DNA of 64,000 nt from Actinomycetota bacterium (GCA_036555645.1 DATBLA010000185.1:17694-81693), one strand, 5' to 3'; positions 2 to 10,144 are shown, counted from the first letter of the stretch. Notes: a model not told the origin generated them from the letters alone. Program-made: numbers and translations.

Positions 2-463
2 GCCCAGGACGTCGGGTTCGCGATCAACCCGCAGAACGTCGTCGGCCAGATCGAGGGCGGCTCGGCCCAGGGGCTCGGTCTCGCCCTCATGGAGGAGATC
101 CGGCTCCGCGACGGACAGATCACGAACGCCTCGTTCACCGACTACCTCCTGCCGACGACGCTCGACATGCCCCCCGTCGAGGTCGAGCTGGTGGAGGAGC
201 CCGAGCCCGGCTCGCCGTTCGGGGTCAAGGGCGTGGGGGAGCCGTCGAACGTCGTGGCGCCGGCCGCGATCGTCTCGGCGATCCGCGCGGCGCTCGGCCG
301 GGACCTCCAGCGGATCCCCGTCACGCCCGACGACCTGGTCGGCCTTCGGCCGCCACCCGGGGTCCCGCCCTGGCCGCCCTCGCCCGACGTTCCGGGCCCC
401 GCTCCGACCCCCGAGACGGCGGGGATCCATCGAACCGGCGAGGTGCCCGCGCCGGACCGGTGA
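2..463 (+). CDS. C-terminal fragment of xanthine dehydrogenase/aldehyde oxidase family molybdopterin-binding subunit (5' partial)
   Basis: In-frame translation from window start (AQDVGFAINPQNVVGQIEGGSAQGLGLALMEE...TDYLLPTTLDMPPVEVELVEEPEPGSPFGVKGVGEPSNVVAPAAIVSAIRAALG) matches conserved C-terminus of Mo-hydroxylase large subunits. Confidence 0.6.
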   Translation, partial: AQDVGFAINPQNVVGQIEGGSAQGLGLALMEEIRLRDGQITNASFTDYLLPTTLDMPPVEVELVEEPEPGSPFGVKGVGEPSNVVAPAAIVSAIRAALGRDLQRIPVTPDDLVGLRPPPGVPPWPPSPDVPGPAPTPETAGIHRTGEVPAPDR

Positions 464-533: not shown

Positions 534-1247
534 ATGAGGACCTACTCGCCGAAGCCGCGTGACATCGAGCGCCGCTGGTTCGTGATCGACGCCAGCGGCG
601 CCGTTCTGGGTCGCCTGGCGACCGAGGCCGCGGCGATCCTGCGCGGCAAGCACAAGCCGATCTTCGCCCCACACATGGACACGGGCGATCACGTGATCGT
701 CGTGAACGCGAAGGACGTGACGCTCTCCGGCGGCAAGCGGGAGACGAAGGTCGCCTACCGGCACTCCGGACACCCGGGGGGCCTGACGGCGACGCCGTAC
801 GGCAGGTTGCTCGTCGAGAAGCCGGCCTTCGCGGTGGAGAAGGCGATCAGGGGCATGTTGCCGAAGAACCGGCTCGGCCGCCAGATGGCGAGCAAGCTCA
901 AGGTCTACGCTGGTCCGGATCACCGGCACACCGCCCAGCAGCCGCAGCCGCTGAAGCTCGGCGAGATCCCGACGTGGGAGGGCCTGCCGTCACCGGCGGT
1001 TCCGGCGTCGGATCCGCCGGCGAAGGCCTCCACGGCGAAGCGGTCGAGCTCGGCGCAAGCCGGCGCGAAGCCCTCGGCCGCCAAGCGCTCGACCGCGACG
1101 AAGACCGCCGCGAGCGCCAAGCGATCGACCGCGAAGCGGACGAGCACCGCGAAGTCGACCACCGCGAAGCGATCCACCGCGAAGCGCTCCGCGGCCAAGC
1201 CGTCCACCGCGAAGCGGTCGACCCGCAAGACCACGAAGGAGGAGTAG
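534..1247 (+). CDS. rplM: 50S ribosomal protein L13 with about 90 aa Lys/Ala/Arg/Ser/Thr-rich C-terminal repeat extension
   Basis: N-terminus [29 protein letters not shown] is canonical L13. Core about 145 aa is followed by AKRSTAKRS-type repeats to 237 aa. Confidence 0.9.
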
Positions 1248-1631
1248 GTGGCGCACATCGCAACCGGCCGTCGCAAGGAGGCCGTCGCGCGGGTTCGGCT
1301 CGCTCCCGGCACCGGGACGTTCGAGGTGAACGGCCGCTCGCTCGACGAGTACTTCACGACGCGCGCGGATCGCATCGTGGTCTCCGCCCCGCTACGTCTC
1401 GTCGGCAAGGACAAGGAGGTCGACGTCGTCGCCACGATCGAGGGCGGTGGTGTCTCGGGCCAGGCGGGCGCGCTCCGCCTCGGCATCGCCCGCGCGCTCA
1501 TCGAGCTCGATCCCGAGCTGCGTCCGGCGCTGAAGAGCGAGGGCTACCTGTCGCGGGACGCGCGCGAGAAGGAGCGGCGCAAGTACGGCCTCAAGAAGGC
1601 CCGCAAGGCGCCGCAGTACTCGAAGCGCTAG
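1248..1631 (+). CDS. rpsI: 30S ribosomal protein S9 (GTG start)
   Basis: Conserved S9 sequence ...[19 protein letters not shown]...[12 protein letters not shown] immediately after rplM. Confidence 0.9.
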
Positions 1632-1867
1632 TCGTCGCCGGGTTCGCTCCTCGCCGGATCCGCCGCGGTGTCGCCCTGATCGAGGACGAGCCGAGCCTGG
1701 ACCTCGTGCGCGGCGGCGACGAAGACGTGGACGGGTCCCACCCGATAGGGGTCGTCGCCTCCACCCTTGAGCAGCACCGGGATGCCCTCGTCCTCCAGGC
1801 GCGACTTCACGATCTCGCCCTCCAGGCTCGACGACACGGTGCGCACGAGGACGAGCTCGTCGGTCAT
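1628..1867 (-). CDS. Small DUF2007-like protein (putative signal-transducing protein fold)
   Basis: 79 aa, pattern [27 protein letters not shown]...[17 protein letters not shown] resembles DUF2007. Sits convergently in the rpsI-glmM gap. Confidence 0.45.
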
Positions 1868-1935: not shown

Positions 1936-3261
1936 ATGGGACGACTCTTCGGGACCGACGGCGTCCGCGGTGTGTTCGGCCGGGATCTCACGACCGATCT
2001 CGCGCGTGAGCTCGGGAGGGCGGCGGTGGTCGTCCTGTCGCGGAGCGGAGGGCACCGTCCCGCCTTCGTCATCGGACGCGACACTCGGGGATCGGGTGCG
2101 CTCCTGGAGGACGCGCTCCTGGCCGGGATCGTGGACGCGGGTGGGGACGCCACCGTTGCCGGCGTGGTTCCGACGCCGGCGATCGCGTTCCTGACGACCG
2201 CCCTCGGGGCCGACTCGGGCGTCGTGATCTCGGCGTCGCACAACCCGCCACAGGACAACGGCATCAAGCTGTTCGGCAGCGGCGGGATCAAGCTCCCCGA
2301 CGCGGTGGAGGACGCCATCGAGGCCGAGATCGGCCGTGGTTCGGAGCCGGGGCCACCCGGTCGGCGACTCCCGGTCCCCCCGGACGCCCCCAGCTATCTC
2401 GAGCACGTCTCGGCCGCGGCCCGGGCACGCCTGGACGGGATGCGGGTCGTCGTCGACTGCGCGAACGGCTCCGCGAGCGGGTTCGCCCGTGAGGTCCTCG
2501 AGGGCCTCGGCGCGCGGGTCGAGACCATCCATGCCGATCCGGACGGCGCGAACATCAACGTGGGCTGCGGGGCCCTCCATCCCGAGGTCGTCGCCGGCGC
2601 GGTCGCGCGGTCCGGTGCGGATGCGGGGATCGCGTTCGACGGGGACGCGGATCGAGCGCTGTTCGCCGATGCCGGTGGCGGGGTGATCGACGGGGACCAG
2701 GTGCTGGCGGCCTGCGCGATCGCGATGCGGGCCGATGGGACGCTCACGGGCGACACGGTCGTCACGACGGTCATGTCCAACGTCGGCTTCCACCGCGCGA
2801 TGGCCGAGCACGGCATCCGCGTCGTCTCGGCGGCCGTCGGGGACCGGTACGTGCTCGAGCAGATGCTCGAGCACGACGCCGCGCTCGGGGGCGAGCAGTC
2901 CGGCCACGTGATCTTCCGCCACCACGCGACGACCGGAGACGGCCTGCTCACGGCCGTCTGGTTCCTGTCCCTGGCCGCCGAGCGGGGTGTGTCGGTCTCG
3001 GAGCTGGCGGCCGCCATGCGGAGATTCCCCCAGGTCCTTCGCAACGTCGAGGTGCCGCGGAAGGACGATCTCGGCGACGCCACGGGGGTCTGGGAGGCGG
3101 TGCGAGCCGCGGAGTCCCAGCTCGACGGGTCCGGGCGCGTGCTCGTTCGGGCCTCGGGGACCGAGCCACTGGTTCGGGTCATGGTCGAGGCCGAGACCGA
3201 GGACCTCGCTCGCCACCACGCCGACACGATCGCCGAGCACGTGGCGTCGGCGCTGGGCTGA
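1936..3261 (+). CDS. glmM: Phosphoglucosamine mutase
   Basis: MGRLFGTDGVRGV... and the active-site SASHNPPQDNGIK motif. Confidence 0.9.
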   Translation: MGRLFGTDGVRGVFGRDLTTDLARELGRAAVVVLSRSGGHRPAFVIGRDTRGSGALLEDALLAGIVDAGGDATVAGVVPTPAIAFLTTALGADSGVVISASHNPPQDNGIKLFGSGGIKLPDAVEDAIEAEIGRGSEPGPPGRRLPVPPDAPSYLEHVSAAARARLDGMRVVVDCANGSASGFAREVLEGLGARVETIHADPDGANINVGCGALHPEVVAGAVARSGADAGIAFDGDADRALFADAGGGVIDGDQVLAACAIAMRADGTLTGDTVVTTVMSNVGFHRAMAEHGIRVVSAAVGDRYVLEQMLEHDAALGGEQSGHVIFRHHATTGDGLLTAVWFLSLAAERGVSVSELAAAMRRFPQVLRNVEVPRKDDLGDATGVWEAVRAAESQLDGSGRVLVRASGTEPLVRVMVEAETEDLARHHADTIAEHVASALG

Positions 3262-3312
3262 CCGTTCGGCGGAGGCGTCGGCCCGAGACCGGCTGCTACC
3301 CTCGAAGCTCGA

Positions 3313-5136
3313 ATGTGCGGCATCGTGGGCTATGTCGGCCCCGACGAGGCACTCCCGATCGTGCTCGAGGGACTTCGGCGTCTCGAGTACCGGGGGTACG
3401 ACTCCGCGGGCGTTGCGATGATCGACGGCGACCTGTCCGTCGTGAAGCGAGCCGGCAAGCTCTCGGAGCTGGATTCGGCGCTGGGTGAGCAGGCCGCGCC
3501 GTCCGGCTCGGTGGGGATGGGGCACACGCGCTGGGCGACGCACGGCGCCCCGACGGATCGCAACGCCCACCCGCACGTCGATTGCCACGGCCGGGTGGCC
3601 GTGATCCACAACGGCATCATCGAGAACTTCGCCGATCTGCGCGAAGGTCTCGAGAAGGCCGGGCATCGGCTCGACTCCGAGACGGACACCGAGGTCGTGG
3701 CCCACCTGATCGAGGACAAGCAGGGTTCGCTTCCCGACCGCGTCCGAGCCACGGTGCGGGAGCTGGAGGGCTCGTACGCGCTCGTCGTCGTGTCGACGGA
3801 CGAGCCGGACCTGATCGTCGGGGTCAAGGTGGCGTCGCCCCTCATCGTGGGACTCGGCCGGGGCGAGAACCTGCTCGCCTCCGACATCCCGGCGGTCCTG
3901 CAGAAGACCCGGACGGTGGTGCCGATCGACGAGCGCCAGGTCGTCGAGGTCCGCGCGCACGACGTTCGCGTCACCGACTTCGACGGCAACGAGATCCAGG
4001 TCGAGCCCTTCGAGGTGGAGTGGGACGTCGCCCGCGCCCAGAAGGGCGGGTTCGACCACTTCATGCTGAAGGAGATCCACGAGCAACCCTCGGCGATCCG
4101 AGACACGCTCCTCGGACGGGTGAGCGACCAGGGCTTGCTGGCGCTCGACGAGGTGCACGTGGAGACCGACGTGCTGCGCGAGGTCGACAAGGTCTTCGTC
4201 GTGGCGTGCGGGACCGCGTTCCACTCGGGCCTCGTCGCGAAGTACGCGATCGAGCACTGGACGCGCCTGCCCGTGGAGATCGACATCGCCTCGGAGTTCC
4301 GGTACCGCGATCCGGTCCTCGGGCCCGACACGCTGACGCTCGCGGTGAGCCAGTCCGGCGAGACGATCGACACGCTTGAGGCCGCCCGGCACGCCTCCCA
4401 CCAGGGCTCGAAGGTCCTGGCCGTCACGAACACGATCGGCTCGTCGCTGGCCCGGGAGGCGGACGCGGTCATGTACACGCACGCCGGCCCGGAGATCTGC
4501 GTCGCGGCCACGAAGACGTTCGCGACGCAGATGGCGGCGCTCCACCTCGTCGCCCTGTACCTGGCGCAGGTCCGTGGAGCGATGTTCCCCGAGGAGATCA
4601 TCGAGACCGTCAGCCGCCTGGAGGAGCTGCCCGAGCAGGTGGAGCGGACGCTCGCCCTCGAGGAGCAGGTCCGCGCGATCGCGGCCGAGCTCCGGGACAC
4701 CCGCGACGTGCTGTTCATCGGCCGCCACACGGGGTACCCGGCGGCCCTCGAGGGAGCCCTGAAGCTGAAGGAGCTCTCGTACCTCCACGCCGAGGGATAC
4801 CCGGCCGGCGAGCTGAAGCACGGACCGATCGCGCTCGTCGAGGAGGGCGTCCCCGTCGTCGCCGTCGCGACCGAGTGCCACGTCTACCCGAAGGTCCTGT
4901 CGAACATCCAGGAGGTCCGCGCTCGGGGCGCCGACGTCATCGCCGTCGCGAGCGAGGGGGACGAGGAGATCGGCGCGTACGCGAAGCACGTGATCTTCGT
5001 GCCGCGCGTCCCCGAGCTGTTCGCGCCGGTCGTCGTCACGCCGCCGCTGCAGATGCTCGCTTACCACGTGGCGAAGATGCGCGGCTGCGACGTCGACCAG
5101 CCGCGGAACCTCGCGAAGAGCGTCACGGTCGAGTAA
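3313..5136 (+). CDS. glmS: Glutamine--fructose-6-phosphate aminotransferase (isomerizing)
   Basis: MCGIVGYVG N-terminal nucleophile, two SIS domains, C-terminal ...KSVTVE. Confidence 0.95.
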   Translation: MCGIVGYVGPDEALPIVLEGLRRLEYRGYDSAGVAMIDGDLSVVKRAGKLSELDSALGEQAAPSGSVGMGHTRWATHGAPTDRNAHPHVDCHGRVAVIHNGIIENFADLREGLEKAGHRLDSETDTEVVAHLIEDKQGSLPDRVRATVRELEGSYALVVVSTDEPDLIVGVKVASPLIVGLGRGENLLASDIPAVLQKTRTVVPIDERQVVEVRAHDVRVTDFDGNEIQVEPFEVEWDVARAQKGGFDHFMLKEIHEQPSAIRDTLLGRVSDQGLLALDEVHVETDVLREVDKVFVVACGTAFHSGLVAKYAIEHWTRLPVEIDIASEFRYRDPVLGPDTLTLAVSQSGETIDTLEAARHASHQGSKVLAVTNTIGSSLAREADAVMYTHAGPEICVAATKTFATQMAALHLVALYLAQVRGAMFPEEIIETVSRLEELPEQVERTLALEEQVRAIAAELRDTRDVLFIGRHTGYPAALEGALKLKELSYLHAEGYPAGELKHGPIALVEEGVPVVAVATECHVYPKVLSNIQEVRARGADVIAVASEGDEEIGAYAKHVIFVPRVPELFAPVVVTPPLQMLAYHVAKMRGCDVDQPRNLAKSVTVE

Positions 5137-5547: not shown

Positions 5548-7067
5548 GGCCGGTCCTCCTGCCGGCCGAGGCGCAGGAGCTCGACCGAGCGTCGCAGGCA
5601 CGGGGCATCGGCGCCTCCGATCTCATGGAGGCCGCCGGGGGGGAGGTCGCCGACGCGGCACGCCGTCTCCTCGGCGGCGTCTACGGGCGTCGCGCCGCGG
5701 TCGTCTGCGGGCCGGGCAACAACGGCGGCGACGGGTTCGTGGCCGCCCGGCATCTGGCCGCGGCGGGAGTCGGAACGACGGTGATCCTCCTCGAGGACCC
5801 GGAGGCCTTCCGGGAGCCGGCCGGGTCCAACCTGCGAGCCCTGCGAGCCACGCCCGCGCGCATCCGCCCCGCGTCGACCGCGGTGCTCGGACGCGAGCTG
5901 GGCCGCGCGGGCGTCGTCGTCGACGCGATCTTCGGAACCGGGTTCCACGGTGTGGCCGCCGGCGCGGCCGCGCAGGCCATCGCCGCGATCAACGCCGCGC
6001 GGGTGCCCGTCGTCGCCGTCGACATCCCCTCCGGCGTGGACGGCGGCACCGGGGCGGTCGAGGGGGAGGCGGTTCGCGCGGATCTCACCGTGACCTTCGG
6101 GGCACCGAAGCCGGGCGTGATCCTGTTCCCGGGAGCGGCGCTCGCGGGTGTCGTCGAGGTGGAGCCGATCGGCTTCCCGCCGGACCTGATCCGAGGCGAG
6201 ATCGAGCTCGTCGAGCCCGAGGACGTCGCCGCGTGGCTGCCGACCCGCGAGGCCGAGAGCCACAAGCGGTCCGCCGGCTACGGCGTCGTGATCGCGGGCT
6301 CCAGGTCGATGACCGGAGCCGCGGCGCTCGCAGGCCGAGGGGCGTACGCAGCGGGGGCCGGCCTCGTCGCCGTCGCCGTCCCCGAAGGCATCCTTCCCGT
6401 GCTGCAGGGGCTCCTCACCGAGGCGGTCTTCGTCCCGCTGCCTGAGACCGCCGAGGGGGCCGCGTCGGGAGGCTCGGCCCGGCTTGACGACGTCCTCGCG
6501 CAGGCCGGCGCGCTCGCCATCGGCCCGGGGATGACGGCGAACGAGACGACCGCCGCGTGGGTGCGTGAGGTCCTGCGGGCGAGCGAGATCCCGGTCGTCC
6601 TGGACGCCGACGGGCTGAACGCGTTCGCCGGGCGGCCCGAGGACCTGGCGGACCGCAAGGCCGAGATCGTGCTCACCCCCCACGCCGGCGAGTTCGCACG
6701 GCTCGCGGGCATCGGCGCGGCCGACGTGGTCCGGGATCGGATCGCGCGCGTTCGCGAGCTGGCCGGACGCACCGGGGCCGTCGTGCTCCTGAAGGGGAGC
6801 CGCACGGTCATCGGGACCCCGGACGGCCGCATCCGGATCGTCGCGACCGGGGGACCGTTCCTCGCGACCGGCGGCACCGGGGACGTGCTCACCGGGATGA
6901 TCGTCGCCCTGCTCGCGGGCGGGCTGGCTCCGGCCGACGCGGCCGCTGCGGCGGCGTTCGTGCACGGAGTGGCCGGCCGCACCGCTGCCGAGGGCCGGTC
7001 GGGACGGATCACCGCCGGGGACGTCGTCGCTCGGATCCCCGAGGCCATCGAGGAGATCGCCGGATGA
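5544..7067 (+). CDS. nnr: Bifunctional NAD(P)H-hydrate repair enzyme (epimerase/ADP-dependent dehydratase)
   Basis: N-terminal YjeF-N (CGPGNNGGDG) plus C-terminal carbohydrate-kinase-like domain (GGTGDVLTG). 4-bp overlap with acpS. Confidence 0.85.
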   Translation: MRPVLLPAEAQELDRASQARGIGASDLMEAAGGEVADAARRLLGGVYGRRAAVVCGPGNNGGDGFVAARHLAAAGVGTTVILLEDPEAFREPAGSNLRALRATPARIRPASTAVLGRELGRAGVVVDAIFGTGFHGVAAGAAAQAIAAINAARVPVVAVDIPSGVDGGTGAVEGEAVRADLTVTFGAPKPGVILFPGAALAGVVEVEPIGFPPDLIRGEIELVEPEDVAAWLPTREAESHKRSAGYGVVIAGSRSMTGAAALAGRGAYAAGAGLVAVAVPEGILPVLQGLLTEAVFVPLPETAEGAASGGSARLDDVLAQAGALAIGPGMTANETTAAWVREVLRASEIPVVLDADGLNAFAGRPEDLADRKAEIVLTPHAGEFARLAGIGAADVVRDRIARVRELAGRTGAVVLLKGSRTVIGTPDGRIRIVATGGPFLATGGTGDVLTGMIVALLAGGLAPADAAAAAAFVHGVAGRTAAEGRSGRITAGDVVARIPEAIEEIAG

Positions 7068-8170
7068 GGCGCTTTCGGCCCACGGTCGTCGAGGTCGACC
7101 TCGACGCGGTCCGCCGGAACGTCCGTCGCCTGCTCGTCGAGGACGCGGGCCTCATGGCCGTGGTCAAGGCCGACGGCTACGGCCACGGCGATGCCGAGGT
7201 GGCGCGCGCGGCGCTCGAGGCCGGCGCGGGATGGCTGGGGGTCGCCCTGGTCGAGGAGGGACTCGGGCTTCGAGATCGGGGGATCGACGCGCCGATCCTC
7301 GTGCTCTCCGAGTTCCCCGCGGGATCGGAGAAGGAGGCCCTTGCTGGAGATCTCACGCCGAGCGTCTACACACGCGAGGGCCTCGCGGCCCTCGCCGAGG
7401 CGGCCCGAGCCGGCGGCCGAGCCGTCGGCGTCCATCTCAAGCTCGACACCGGGATGCACCGGGTGGGGGTGTGGCCCCCCGAGGAGGGGCCGGCGTTCGC
7501 CCGCGACATCGCCGAGGCCGGTCTGAGGCTCGACGGGGTGTGGACGCACTTCCCCGACGCCGAACGAGACGACGACGGCACGCGCGCCCGGCTGGCGCGG
7601 TTCCGAGCCGTGCTCGAGCGCATGCGCGCTGCCGGGGTCGCGCCATCGCTCGCCCACGCCGCGAACAGCGCGGCGACGATCCGCGTTCCCGAATCGCGTC
7701 TGGATCTCGTCCGGCCGGGGGCGGCCGTCTACGGCCTGGATCCGGGCGACGGCATCGGTCCCGCGGCCGGCCTCGAGCCCGCGCTCACGTGGCGATCGGC
7801 CGTCTCGATGGTGAAACGTCTTCTCCCCGGCGAACGTGTCTCCTACGGGGGGCGGTTTCTCGTCGATCGAGCCTCGACCATCGCGACGGTCCCGGTCGGC
7901 TACGACGACGGCTTCCCGAGGTCGGCCGAGGGTCGAGCCGAGGTGCTGGTCCGCGGCCGGCGTTGCCCGGTCATCGGCGCCGTCACGATGGATCAGATCC
8001 TCGTCGACTGCGGCGACGACGAGGTCGTGGCCGGCGACGAGGTCGTGATCGCCGGAGCCCAGGGCGCCGAGCGGATCTCGCTCGACGACCTGGCGTCGGC
8101 GTGCGGGACGATCGGACGCGAGCTCGCCACGGGGATCGGGGCTCGGGTTCCCAGGGAGTACCTCGGGTGA
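7064..8170 (+). CDS. alr: Alanine racemase
   Basis: AVVKADGYGHG PLP-lysine motif. 4-bp overlap with nnr. Confidence 0.9.
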   Translation: MRRFRPTVVEVDLDAVRRNVRRLLVEDAGLMAVVKADGYGHGDAEVARAALEAGAGWLGVALVEEGLGLRDRGIDAPILVLSEFPAGSEKEALAGDLTPSVYTREGLAALAEAARAGGRAVGVHLKLDTGMHRVGVWPPEEGPAFARDIAEAGLRLDGVWTHFPDAERDDDGTRARLARFRAVLERMRAAGVAPSLAHAANSAATIRVPESRLDLVRPGAAVYGLDPGDGIGPAAGLEPALTWRSAVSMVKRLLPGERVSYGGRFLVDRASTIATVPVGYDDGFPRSAEGRAEVLVRGRRCPVIGAVTMDQILVDCGDDEVVAGDEVVIAGAQGAERISLDDLASACGTIGRELATGIGARVPREYLG

Positions 8171-9210
8171 GCCGCAAGCGCGCCGCGCTCGTCACGGCCG
8201 GGATCGCTGCCGGCGCCGTCGCCAGCGGCGTGATCGGCCGCACGGTCCTGAACGCCCGGAGGCGGAAGGACGACCCCGAGGCGCACGAGCAGCTGTCGAC
8301 GCCGCCGCCCGAGGATCTCGGGACGGTTCGCTCGTTCGACGGGACCGAGCTTGCGGTGCGTGCCGCGGGGGACCCGGCGCGACCGGCGATCGTGTTCGTC
8401 CACGGGTTCAGCCTGGACATGACGACGTGGCACTACCAGTGGAAGGAGCTGTCCTCGCGGTACCGCTGCATCCTGTTCGACTTCCGATCCCACGGCCGGA
8501 GCGGTCGCGCCGCCGGTGGGGACCTGTCGCCGCTCGCGTTCGGGCACGATCTCGCGGCCGTGCTCGACGCGGTGGTGCCGGGCCAGCGCGTGCTCCTCGT
8601 CGGTCACAGCATGGGGGCGATGGCGATCCTGTCGATGGCGGAGACGCGGCCGGACCTGTTCGAGGGGTCGGTGGCCGGGGTGGTGATCGCCGGCTCGGCC
8701 GCGAGCGATCTCGTTCGCGGCGCCGTGGGTTCGGTCACCGAGCTCCTGCGGCCGCGCCTGGGCTCGCTGCGGCAGGCCGCCCGGCGCGTGAATCGCCTCC
8801 GTCGAACCGTGCTGGCCACCCCGGGCGACATCGCCCAGATCGTGGCGCGGATGACGCAGTTCGGACCCGATGCCTCTCCCCACGTCGTGAGCTACATCGT
8901 CGAGCTGGCCGCGCGAGCCCCCTCCGAGGTCTGGACCGACGGGCTGGCGGGGCTCATGGACATGGACCTGCGGCACGCCCTCCGACACTTGCGCGTTCCC
9001 ACGCTCGTGATCGTGGGCGACCAGGATCGAATGACGCCGCCGTCGGCTTCGGTCGCCCTCGTCGACGAGCTTCCCGACGGTCGTCTCCAGATCGTCGAGG
9101 GCGCCGGGCACTTCCCGATGATGGAGGCGCACGAGGAGTTCAGCCGCCGGGTCGCCGCGTTCGCCGGTTCGGTGTTGCGCGCGCGGCGAGGCCGGCGGAG
9201 GACCGCGTGA
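8167..9210 (+). CDS. Alpha/beta-fold hydrolase (GTG start, overlapping the alr stop)
   Basis: HGFSLDMTTWHYQW...GHSMG nucleophile elbow...GAGHFPMME. The 7231..9210 track ORF is an upstream read-through of the same frame. Confidence 0.7.
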   Translation: MSRKRAALVTAGIAAGAVASGVIGRTVLNARRRKDDPEAHEQLSTPPPEDLGTVRSFDGTELAVRAAGDPARPAIVFVHGFSLDMTTWHYQWKELSSRYRCILFDFRSHGRSGRAAGGDLSPLAFGHDLAAVLDAVVPGQRVLLVGHSMGAMAILSMAETRPDLFEGSVAGVVIAGSAASDLVRGAVGSVTELLRPRLGSLRQAARRVNRLRRTVLATPGDIAQIVARMTQFGPDASPHVVSYIVELAARAPSEVWTDGLAGLMDMDLRHALRHLRVPTLVIVGDQDRMTPPSASVALVDELPDGRLQIVEGAGHFPMMEAHEEFSRRVAAFAGSVLRARRGRRRTA

Positions 9211-9229
9211 GCCGGTCCGAGGTCCTTCG

Positions 9230-10144
9230 GTGACCGAACGGGTCCCGGGGATCCGCGTCGGGCACTCGACGGACCTGAGTGGGGTCACGGGATGCACCGT
9301 CGTCCTGTGTCCGCCCGGGACGATCGGATCGGTGGATGTGAAGGGCGGGGCGCCGGGCACGCGCGAAACCGACGCGATCCGTCCCGGGACGTCGGTCGCC
9401 GAGTGTCATGCGGTGGTCCTGGCCGGCGGCAGCGCGTTCGGCCTGGAGGCGGCGACCGGGGTCGTTCGATGGCTGGAGGAGCGGGGTGTCGGGTTCGACA
9501 CGCGGGTGGCCCGGGTGCCGATCGTGCCCGGCGCCGTCCTGTTCGACCTCGGGATCGGGGATCCGCTCGCGCGCCCGGACGCCTCGGCCGGGTACGCCGC
9601 CTGCGAGGACGCGATCGAGGGCCCGATCGCCCAGGGGAGCGTCGGCGCCGGGACGGGGGCCGTCTTCGCCAAGGTGCCGGATCCCTCGGCGGGATGGAAG
9701 GGCGGGGTCGGCGAGGCCGGACACCGGGACGGTGAGGCGATCGTGTGGGCGCTCGCCGCGGTCAACGCCCTCGGGACGGTGTTGGACGAGGACGGCGCGC
9801 CGCTGGTCGAGAATCGGAACCCGACGGCCGACCCGCTCCTGTGGCCCGAGGTCAACACGACCCTGGTCGTCGTCGCGACGAACGCGACGCTGTCGAAGGA
9901 GCGGGCGCAGCTCCTGGCCCAGGCGGGGAGCGAGGGCCTCTCGCTCGTCGTGAGCCCGGCGCATACGATGTGGGACGGCGACGTGGTGTTCGCGCTCGCG
10001 ACCGGGCTCGTGGACGTTCCCCAACCCCGGCTCGAGTCGCTCGCGACGCGGGCCGCGAGCGATGCCATCCGCAGCGCGGTTCGCGCGGCGCAGCCGCTCG
10101 GCGGCATCCCCGCGCTCGGGGCCCCGGGCGAAGGGACCGGGTAG
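9230..10144 (+). CDS. P1-family (DmpA/S58-like) peptidase
   Basis: GIRVGHSTDLSGVTGCTVVL...VVLAGGSAFGLEAA pattern of L-aminopeptidase DmpA/ArgJ-fold peptidases. Confidence 0.65.
   Translation: MTERVPGIRVGHSTDLSGVTGCTVVLCPPGTIGSVDVKGGAPGTRETDAIRPGTSVAECHAVVLAGGSAFGLEAATGVVRWLEERGVGFDTRVARVPIVPGAVLFDLGIGDPLARPDASAGYAACEDAIEGPIAQGSVGAGTGAVFAKVPDPSAGWKGGVGEAGHRDGEAIVWALAAVNALGTVLDEDGAPLVENRNPTADPLLWPEVNTTLVVVATNATLSKERAQLLAQAGSEGLSLVVSPAHTMWDGDVVFALATGLVDVPQPRLESLATRAASDAIRSAVRAAQPLGGIPALGAPGEGTG

Follow-up and report, generated by a model that had tools for sequence, protein, structure and literature searches.

The window, the 64,000-nucleotide stretch of DNA from an Actinomycetota bacterium analysed here, contains a genuine gene for ribosomal protein L13 (rplM, uL13), whose product carries a disordered, positively charged repeat tail common to a clade of uncultured Actinomycetota. 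Our preferred reading, to which we give a probability of roughly 0.55, is that the tail is a genuine, translated, lineage-specific extension of uL13, in which a docking linker would be followed by a disordered polycationic segment that binds RNA non-specifically.

The rplM gene and its core domain

The open reading frame starts with ATG, ends with TAG at 1245–1247 and encodes 237 residues, compared with about 140–150 in canonical L13 (Table 1). The initial annotation had described it as L13 with a long basic, low-complexity C-terminal tail; we confirmed the reading frame, and the tail sequence that it quoted is exact. The protein matched the Pfam family Ribosomal_L13 (PF00572) over residues 13–130 with 148.9 bits. 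It also matched TIGR01066 (rplM_bact), the NCBIfam equivalog model for bacterial L13 with 141 positions; residues 7–141 were aligned with profile positions 5–140, and the score was 180.4 bits against a cutoff of 93.05. The uL13 profile match is full-length and above the curated cutoff, and the rplM-rpsI operon synteny is present. Because the profile match stops at residue 141, about 96 residues (142–237) lie beyond the canonical end of L13. The L13 chains in the PDB align with residues 1–145 of the window protein, and the best PDB matches are uL13 chains. Bacterial L13 chains in solved structures are mostly 137–151 residues long, and none of those in the PDB comparison has a comparable tail. 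The departure from canonical uL13 is one of length only, and it does not argue against orthology.

The start of rpsI had also been placed directly after rplM. Its GTG codon at 1248–1250 indeed abuts the TAG codon of rplM, and the S9 protein matches its profile end to end. The rplM-rpsI order is the same in two relatives (loci L081 and L082).

Table 1. Features of the rplM-rpsI region, with positions counted from the first nucleotide of the window
Feature	Position	Strand	Basis
rplM ORF (uL13, 237 aa with tail)	534..1247	+	ORF listing; Pfam and NCBIfam L13 matches
Canonical uL13 domain, aa 1–141	534..956	+	TIGR01066, PDB alignments, AlphaFold2
Clade-specific conserved linker, aa 140–152	951..989	+	Invariant columns, alignment A1
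Pro/Ala-rich spacer, aa 153–162	990..1019	+	Read from sequence; variable in A1
Polycationic repeat tail, aa 163–237 (75 aa)	1020..1244	+	Composition, codon usage, motif counts, AlphaFold2
Imperfect tandem DNA repeats encoding the tail	1014–1113 (period 45), 1141–1216 (period 15/30)	+	Tandem Repeats Finder, 75–83% matches
AAGGAGGAG, last three rplM codons (K-E-E), rpsI Shine-Dalgarno sequence	1236..1244	+	Sequence; junctions of relatives
rpsI (uS9, 127 aa)	1248..1631	+	PF00380 aa 7–127; NF001099 aa 3–127 of 130-position profile

Evidence that the tail is coding

The length of the open frame is not remarkable alone. At the GC content of 71%, a frame of 96 codons stays open by chance with P of about 0.17, and spurious long open reading frames are abundant in other frames of the window. 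The extension was judged to be coding not from this length but from its codon usage, its excess of Lys, the reading frame of an independent contig and its conservation in relatives. The G+C fraction at third codon positions (GC3) is 0.94 in the tail, 0.94 in the L13 core, 0.91 in S9 and 0.95 in glmS, and the codon choice of the tail is typical of window genes. Lys accounts for 14 of the 75 tail residues against 1.7% of those encoded by 35 other window genes (binomial P about 4e-11), which is an 11-fold enrichment over the proteome. An independent JGI metagenome contig (L082) likewise contains a 237-residue reading frame, which differs from that of the window by nine nucleotide substitutions and no indel. 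Four substitutions in the core are synonymous and none is non-synonymous, and the tail has three synonymous and two non-synonymous ones; nine differences in all are too few for a dN/dS selection test. No stop codon occurs at the canonical end of L13 in either the window or L082. A comparison of rplM length in related taxa, which the initial annotation had proposed as a check, found the extension in all close relatives, and the independent assembly reproduces the tail.

A frameshift or assembly error, a missed stop codon, or the joining of rplM to a separate H1/HC2-like gene could in principle produce such a frame. Open frames are common at this GC content (P about 0.17 for 96 codons), and the reading at this locus is disrupted in two relatives (L018 and L025). 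However, the independent assembly has an identical ORF architecture, the tail is kept in 28 species and in 119 of 120 database homologs, and in GC3 and codon usage it matches real genes. A fusion is further opposed by the tail-less relatives, in which no gene lies between rplM and rpsI and the spacer is at most 32 nt. An artefactual origin of the tail is effectively excluded. Given the L082 reading frame, the conservation, the GC3 and the absence of a donor gene, we rejected a frameshift, a missed stop codon and a gene fusion alike.

Architecture of the extension

The tailed L13 proteins are composed of four parts, namely the uL13 core, an invariant linker, a Lys/Arg/Ala/Ser/Thr(/Pro) repeat tail, and a terminal KKE[EDS] or TEE. 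The linker has the motif L-x-x-G-x-x-P-x-W-x-G-[LF]-P, and Leu140, Gly143, Pro146, Trp148, Gly150 and Pro152 are invariant in the alignment of 36 sequences (A1). All 28 tailed species share the segment G-x-x-P-x-W-x-G-[LF]-P, as do 119 of the 120 homologs, and it was found in none of the tail-less relatives compared. Past the linker, the 36 sequences of A1 cannot be aligned, and their composition is constant. The basic segment of the window protein (residues 163–237) consists of Ala (25%), Lys (19%), Ser (19%), Thr (19%) and Arg (11%), with a net charge of +20; Ser and Thr together make up 37% of the tail and Pro only 3%. The repeat unit is [ST][ST]AK[RKPS], and the tripeptide AKR occurs seven times. 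The tandem repeats of the underlying DNA, with periods of 15, 30 and 45 nt, fit growth and shrinkage of the tail via slippage.

In an AlphaFold2 model calculated with A1, the core folds with pLDDT values of about 60–80 and is built only moderately well (mean pLDDT 58). From residue 126 to the end, the model has no secondary structure and the pLDDT is 40–52; the tail is therefore predicted to be disordered. The same model, in which the core is built only moderately well from the 36-sequence alignment, gave no confident placement of the linker on a docking site.

Distribution among relatives

An exact look-up of the window protein returned no record, and its best 120 database homologs are all 222–292 residues long. 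The linker and a tail of 70–104 residues with a net charge of +13 to +27 are present in 119 of them. The second-best match (P0002, 292 residues, on a 3.8-kb ENA contig) consists of two different L13 domains arranged head-to-tail with no basic tail, and probably represents a chimera of metagenome assembly.

When one genome from each GTDB species was scanned, 80 loci were obtained, and each match was extended to its stop codon. L13 is tailed in 28 of the 80 species (183–280 residues, with linker) and tail-less in the other 52 (141–159 residues), which include Iamia, Microthrix, Ilumatobacteraceae, Desertimonas and other Acidimicrobiia. The tailed genomes are all metagenome-assembled genomes (MAGs) titled 'Actinomycetota' or 'Actinomycetes bacterium', with the exception of one labelled Planctomycetaceae, which is probably mis-binned. 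A neighbour-joining tree built from the L13 core groups the tailed proteins and that of the window in one clade, which is sister to the tail-less Acidimicrobiia and divides into two subclades. The monophyly of the tailed proteins is indicated rather than proven, because this is a single-protein tree without support values. Tails of the window's subclade have Arg-containing TAKR/SAKR units and end in KKE[EDS], and those of the other subclade (B) have PTAKK, TTAKK or KPKAA units and end in TEE.

Across the 28 species, the tail past the linker is 31–128 residues long and has a mean composition of 19% Lys, 6% Arg, 23% Ala, 23% Ser plus Thr, 12% Pro and 3% hydrophobic residues. In 25 species it carries a net charge of +8 to +37. 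The tails of the remaining three (L012, L013 and L019) are short or net-acidic, so a polycation is not indispensable. Lys makes up 10–27% of the tail in 24 of the 28 species despite the subclade-specific units (TAKR, PTAKK and KPKAA), which we count as support for selection that would act on the composition of the tail and not on its sequence. The frame is kept up to a stop codon abutting rpsI in 26 of the 28 species, and the tail has apparently been kept since a single origin, over a divergence of the L13 core down to about 55–60% identity. Lying outside the conserved core, confined to one clade and common to its members, the extension can be regarded as lineage-specific.

Specificity to L13 and origin of the tail

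Six-frame scans of the 64-kb window, of 268 kb of tailed-clade loci and of 300 kb of tail-less loci revealed no other Lys-rich low-complexity segments. A genome-wide tendency to add tails to proteins was rejected for the scanned regions, where only L13 tails were found. On a 2.77-Mb contig of a relative, S13 (126 residues), S11 (130), L17 (119) and S9 (129) are all of ordinary length. The tail-less sister group offers no donor for a fusion, as rplM and rpsI follow each other there with nothing in between; de novo growth from the 3' end of rplM is the most likely origin of the tail. An Rfam scan of the 64-kb window found no RNA family, and hence neither an rRNA nor a known rplM leader.

The end of rplM and the start of rpsI

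The rplM frame ends with AAG GAG GAG TAG, in which GGAGG (1238–1242) lies 5 nt upstream of the GTG codon of rpsI. In the same way, rplM ends with GGAGG or GAGGAG plus the stop codon in 26 of the 28 tailed species; the junctions of the other two (L018 and L025) are unreadable. The rpsI start could be placed at 25 of the 26 readable tailed junctions, and there it lies at −4 to +7 nt from the rplM stop. The end codons of the tailed rplM genes, AAGGAGGAG or ACCGAGGAG, double as the rpsI Shine-Dalgarno sequence (loci L001–L027). Tail-less relatives mostly have a spacer of 9–32 nt between the two genes, which holds the Shine-Dalgarno sequence. The acidic KKEE/TEE end is probably best accounted for by the ribosome-binding site of rpsI, whose footprint it would be, and by tight translational coupling, and not by a motif at the protein level. 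The terminal K-E-E is probably constrained because its codons form the ribosome-binding site of the translationally coupled rpsI.

In L018 (MAG AC_45, 3001–4083), the L13 frame runs unstopped into S9 and gives a 360-residue L13-tail-S9 reading. Its close relatives L022 and L060 have a normal GAGGAGTGA stop, where L018 has a 7-nt gap and a different sequence; the reading is either a true fusion or an assembly error. In L025 (MFD00392.bin.2.365, 3001–3724), the Lys-rich tail is out of frame with the L13 core and can be read at 3476–3724. This apparent frameshift could be a sequencing indel.

Surrounding genes

A 79-residue DUF2007 reading frame ('putative prokaryotic signal transducing protein') on the minus strand of the window (1628–1867) is convergent with rpsI, with an overlap of 4 nt at the rpsI stop. 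L082 has a DUF2007 reading frame in the matching position, and L081 has an unannotated minus-strand gene for 88 residues there. L081 also contains a three-gene cluster for a molybdoenzyme of the xanthine-dehydrogenase/CO-dehydrogenase type (6022–9699) between truA and rplM, with the domains FAD_binding_5, Fer2_2 and Ald_Xan_dh_C/MoCoBD. The start of the window (89–463, plus strand) encodes the MoCoBD_2 C-terminus of the large subunit of such a molybdoenzyme. Because these metabolic genes lie between them, rplM-rpsI is set apart from the rpoA-rplQ-truA block in this lineage. In the ribosomal-protein region of L081, map and infA are separated by a further reading frame of 258 residues with no Pfam match (1591–2367).

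Farther along the window, a long same-strand cluster (20037–41154, plus strand) lies downstream of the housekeeping genes glmM-glmS-acpS-nnr-alr-...-tsaB-rimI-tsaD. Among other products, it encodes a Polysacc_synt_2 dehydratase, a ParA/tyrosine-kinase-like ATPase, a carrier protein with an AMP-binding enzyme, a UDP-glucose dehydrogenase and an ABC transporter, and it looks like a locus for cell-envelope polysaccharide.

Comparison with other basic tails

The tail had been likened to those of histone H1 and HupB. This likeness is one of composition only and holds in that the tail is polycationic, Ala/Lys-rich, repetitive and predicted to be disordered. It fails in the details, since the tail is Pro-poor, rich in Ser, Thr and Arg, and has neither the motifs nor the profile match of that type. 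PAKK/KAAK (PAKKA) repeats define the HupB/H1-type tail (PMC5676037, PMC3553676), and the window tail contains no PAKK and no KAAK, against seven AKR. The window protein also had no match to Pfam HC2 (PF07382, gathering score 40 bits) at E ≤ 0.01. Precomputed PF07382 matches exist on only a few relatives of the window L13; the model reports composition, because it also matches unrelated STAQH repeats. Some tails of subclade B contain one or two PAKK, and that of L063 contains four KAAK; such tails, with PTAKK, PAKK and KAAK, appear nearer to the HupB style than the window tail.

Lysine-rich low-complexity tails modulate DNA binding in Actinobacteria (PMC5676037, PMC3553676), and independent repeated evolution of such tails on unrelated proteins has been proposed (PMC3553676, PMC5676037). 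The tails of actinobacterial HupB/Hlp, Ku and topoisomerase I are, like that of the window L13, terminal, repetitive, polycationic, Ala/Lys-rich and fast-evolving, and their hosts are, like L13, otherwise conserved nucleic-acid-binding proteins of Actinomycetota. The window tail differs from the HupB/Hlp type in its ribosomal, RNA-binding host, its [ST][ST]AKR unit and the conserved Trp-containing linker that precedes it. Its Lys (19%), Ala (25%) and net charge (+20) are as in the HupB/Hlp-type region, but its Pro (3%), Ser plus Thr (37%) and Arg (11%) are not. Chlamydial Hc2 (PF07382) and Pseudomonas AlgP, a polyphosphate-granule protein (PMC9239181), also have basic Ala/Lys-rich repeats of the pentapeptide type. 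This resemblance is one of composition and gives no evidence of homology.

Searches with the tail alone were of limited use. A phmmer search against 1.84 billion representatives returned two 'significant' matches, both to unrelated STAQH/GTARH repeat proteins; it is uninformative because the bias correction suppresses low-complexity matches, even those to the L13 tails of relatives. A word-indexed search gave weak matches (E 0.07–10), which are best read as examples of STAKR repeats elsewhere and not as evidence of homology. Among these unrelated proteins (P0124–P0133), STAKR/TTAKR tails were seen on DUF1918 proteins (PF08940) and on a small phasin-like protein from an Actinomycetota MAG. They were also seen on a zinc-ribbon C-terminal fragment of topoisomerase I, and on a coiled-coil-like family of about 125 residues starting with MPKSEPTESLLKRLQKIE. 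STAKR repeats are thus terminal on other proteins too; therefore, the window tail can be placed among the lysine-rich low-complexity tails, which have emerged time and again on nucleic-acid-binding proteins unrelated to one another (PMC3553676). This kind of tail is already known; here its repeat unit differs and its ribosomal host is new.

Extensions of ribosomal proteins in other lineages

The L13 tail is unusual but not unprecedented as an add-on. The S19 protein of CPR bacteria has an Ala/Lys-rich C-terminal extension of roughly 25 residues (10.1101/2022.01.07.475337), and mosquito RpS6 and RpL23a have H1-like Lys/Ala-rich tails (PMC548281; PMC11764897). Like the L13 tail, these are Lys/Ala-rich C-terminal additions to a universal ribosomal protein within one lineage; the L13 tail, however, is found on another protein and in another lineage, and it is much longer than the S19 extension. 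According to the survey of CPR bacteria, the size of L13 is constant in non-CPR bacteria (10.1101/2022.01.07.475337), to which the tailed clade is an exception.

Organellar and eukaryotic uL13 (uL13c and uL13m) have the core protein in common with the window L13, and their basic extra sequence touches rRNA on the surface of the 50S or 60S subunit. On the surface of the subunit, a plastid-specific basic extension of uL13c touches the termini of the 23S and 4.5S rRNAs and makes up for the missing helix H98 (PMC5694952). That extension is N-terminal and helical (PMC5694952), whereas that of the window protein is C-terminal, repetitive and predicted to be disordered. Solved chains of uL13c and uL13m in the PDB comprise 158–277 residues. 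A mitochondrial uL13 of 277 residues (PDB 7pkt_i) aligns with window residues 14–218, reaching into the tail region, which suggests an independently extended uL13m, probably with a low-complexity extension.

Possible role of the tail

The uL13 protein is essential for 50S assembly and binds 23S rRNA early; in Escherichia coli, its binding site has to be organised with the aid of the helicase SrmB, and the protein is also a repressor of the operon that encodes it (PMC10931766). From its charge, the initial annotation had proposed a nucleic-acid-binding appendage, which is a reasonable inference. Given these properties of uL13 and the plastid precedent, the tail most likely acts as a polycationic RNA-binding appendage on the 50S surface or in early assembly. 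We infer that it would be incorporated into ribosomes, bind RNA and contribute to assembly or stability. The invariant Trp/Pro linker probably docks on a fixed partner at the solvent face of the 50S subunit, which may be neighbouring rRNA or a neighbouring protein. The disordered tail that follows, about 75–100 residues of [ST][ST]AK[RK]-type repeats with a fast turnover, would have positive charge as its conserved property and act as a non-specific electrostatic RNA binder. It may help uL13 to capture and hold nascent rRNA and chaperone early 50S assembly, or its task may be to neutralise or clamp rRNA exposed on the surface of the finished subunit, as eukaryotic and organellar ribosomal-protein extensions do. 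The tail would have arisen, and would vary in length, via slippage and expansion of the 15/30/45-nt repeats at the 3' end of rplM. Against an RNA-binding role counts the great variation of the tail in sequence and length, as expected under weak constraint. Because the same type of repeat is also present on a topoisomerase I fragment and on small proteins, the ligand could equally be DNA or another polyanion.

That variation is also what a tolerated, nearly neutral repeat expansion would leave behind. The C-terminus of uL13 points to the solvent, so that 15-nt repeats prone to slippage could expand and contract there harmlessly; selection might act only on the linker and on the Shine-Dalgarno codons, and the tail would have no specific function. 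In favour of this, the DNA contains tandem repeats, and the tail ranges from 31 to 128 residues with units that vary from one relative to another. Three species have a short or acidic tail, invariance is confined to the linker columns, and the rpsI Shine-Dalgarno sequence accounts for the terminal motif. However, a drifting GC-rich extension is expected to be rich in Ala, Arg, Gly and Pro and not in Lys, and Lys, 11-fold enriched over the proteome in the window tail, remains enriched in 24 of the 28 species and in all but one of the 120 homologs despite the change of units. The frame has moreover been held in 26 of 28 species, and the tail apparently retained since its single origin to about 55–60% core identity. 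We consider neutral expansion unlikely, though credible. Somewhat less probable still is that the tail binds DNA or polyphosphate in the style of HupB, Ku, TopA or AlgP, and tethers ribosomes, or free L13, to the nucleoid or to granules, or makes ribosomes cluster or hibernate when soil cells are dormant or dried out. Its composition resembles that of the actinobacterial lysine-rich tails that modulate DNA binding (PMC5676037, PMC3553676) and that of AlgP (PMC9239181); STAKR repeats are found on the topoisomerase I C-terminal fragment and on small non-ribosomal proteins, and a few relatives have precomputed HC2 matches. The host, however, is a core protein of the ribosome, which binds rRNA and enters the particle early and in stoichiometric amounts, and we count a free pool of L13 as unsupported; the window tail also lacks PAKK and KAAK and leaves HC2 unmatched at E ≤ 0.01.

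Plastid uL13c offers a precedent in the chloroplast ribosome (PMC5694952) for a different function, in which the tail would compensate for a lost or altered rRNA helix or ribosomal protein near uL13, as in the case of H98. The invariant linker suggests a fixed docking site and agrees with this, but a tail of disordered repeats whose length varies would be an improbable stand-in for a lost structural element, and the visible neighbouring ribosomal-protein genes are of normal length. Such compensation is quite improbable. A more speculative proposal, which we rate above compensation and slightly below the DNA or polyphosphate ligand, is that the tail makes uL13, and with it every 50S subunit, polyanion-binding, with a role outside translation. 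It would then act either as a built-in RNA chaperone in place of an SrmB-type helicase at the uL13 site, or as a tether or condensing agent joining ribosomes to nucleoid DNA, to polyphosphate or to one another in dormant soil Actinomycetota; in either case, its Ser/Thr-rich repeats could be a phospho-switch.

Significance

Bacterial L13 is usually treated as a core protein of fixed size, to which the tail of this clade adds two thirds. We found no prior description of a tailed bacterial L13 clade in the searched literature. The uncultured actinobacterial clade that carries the tail is apparently widespread. The linker motif together with the tail provides a clean signature of this clade, and the long L13 calls in its MAGs are not annotation errors. 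A ribosomal host is added to the actinobacterial proteins known to have lysine-rich low-complexity tails, and the tailed L13 provides a natural bacterial analogue of eukaryote-style ribosomal-protein extensions. Should the tail bind rRNA during assembly, or connect ribosomes with other polyanions, it would offer a simple system for the study of the origin and the contribution of disordered polycationic extensions.
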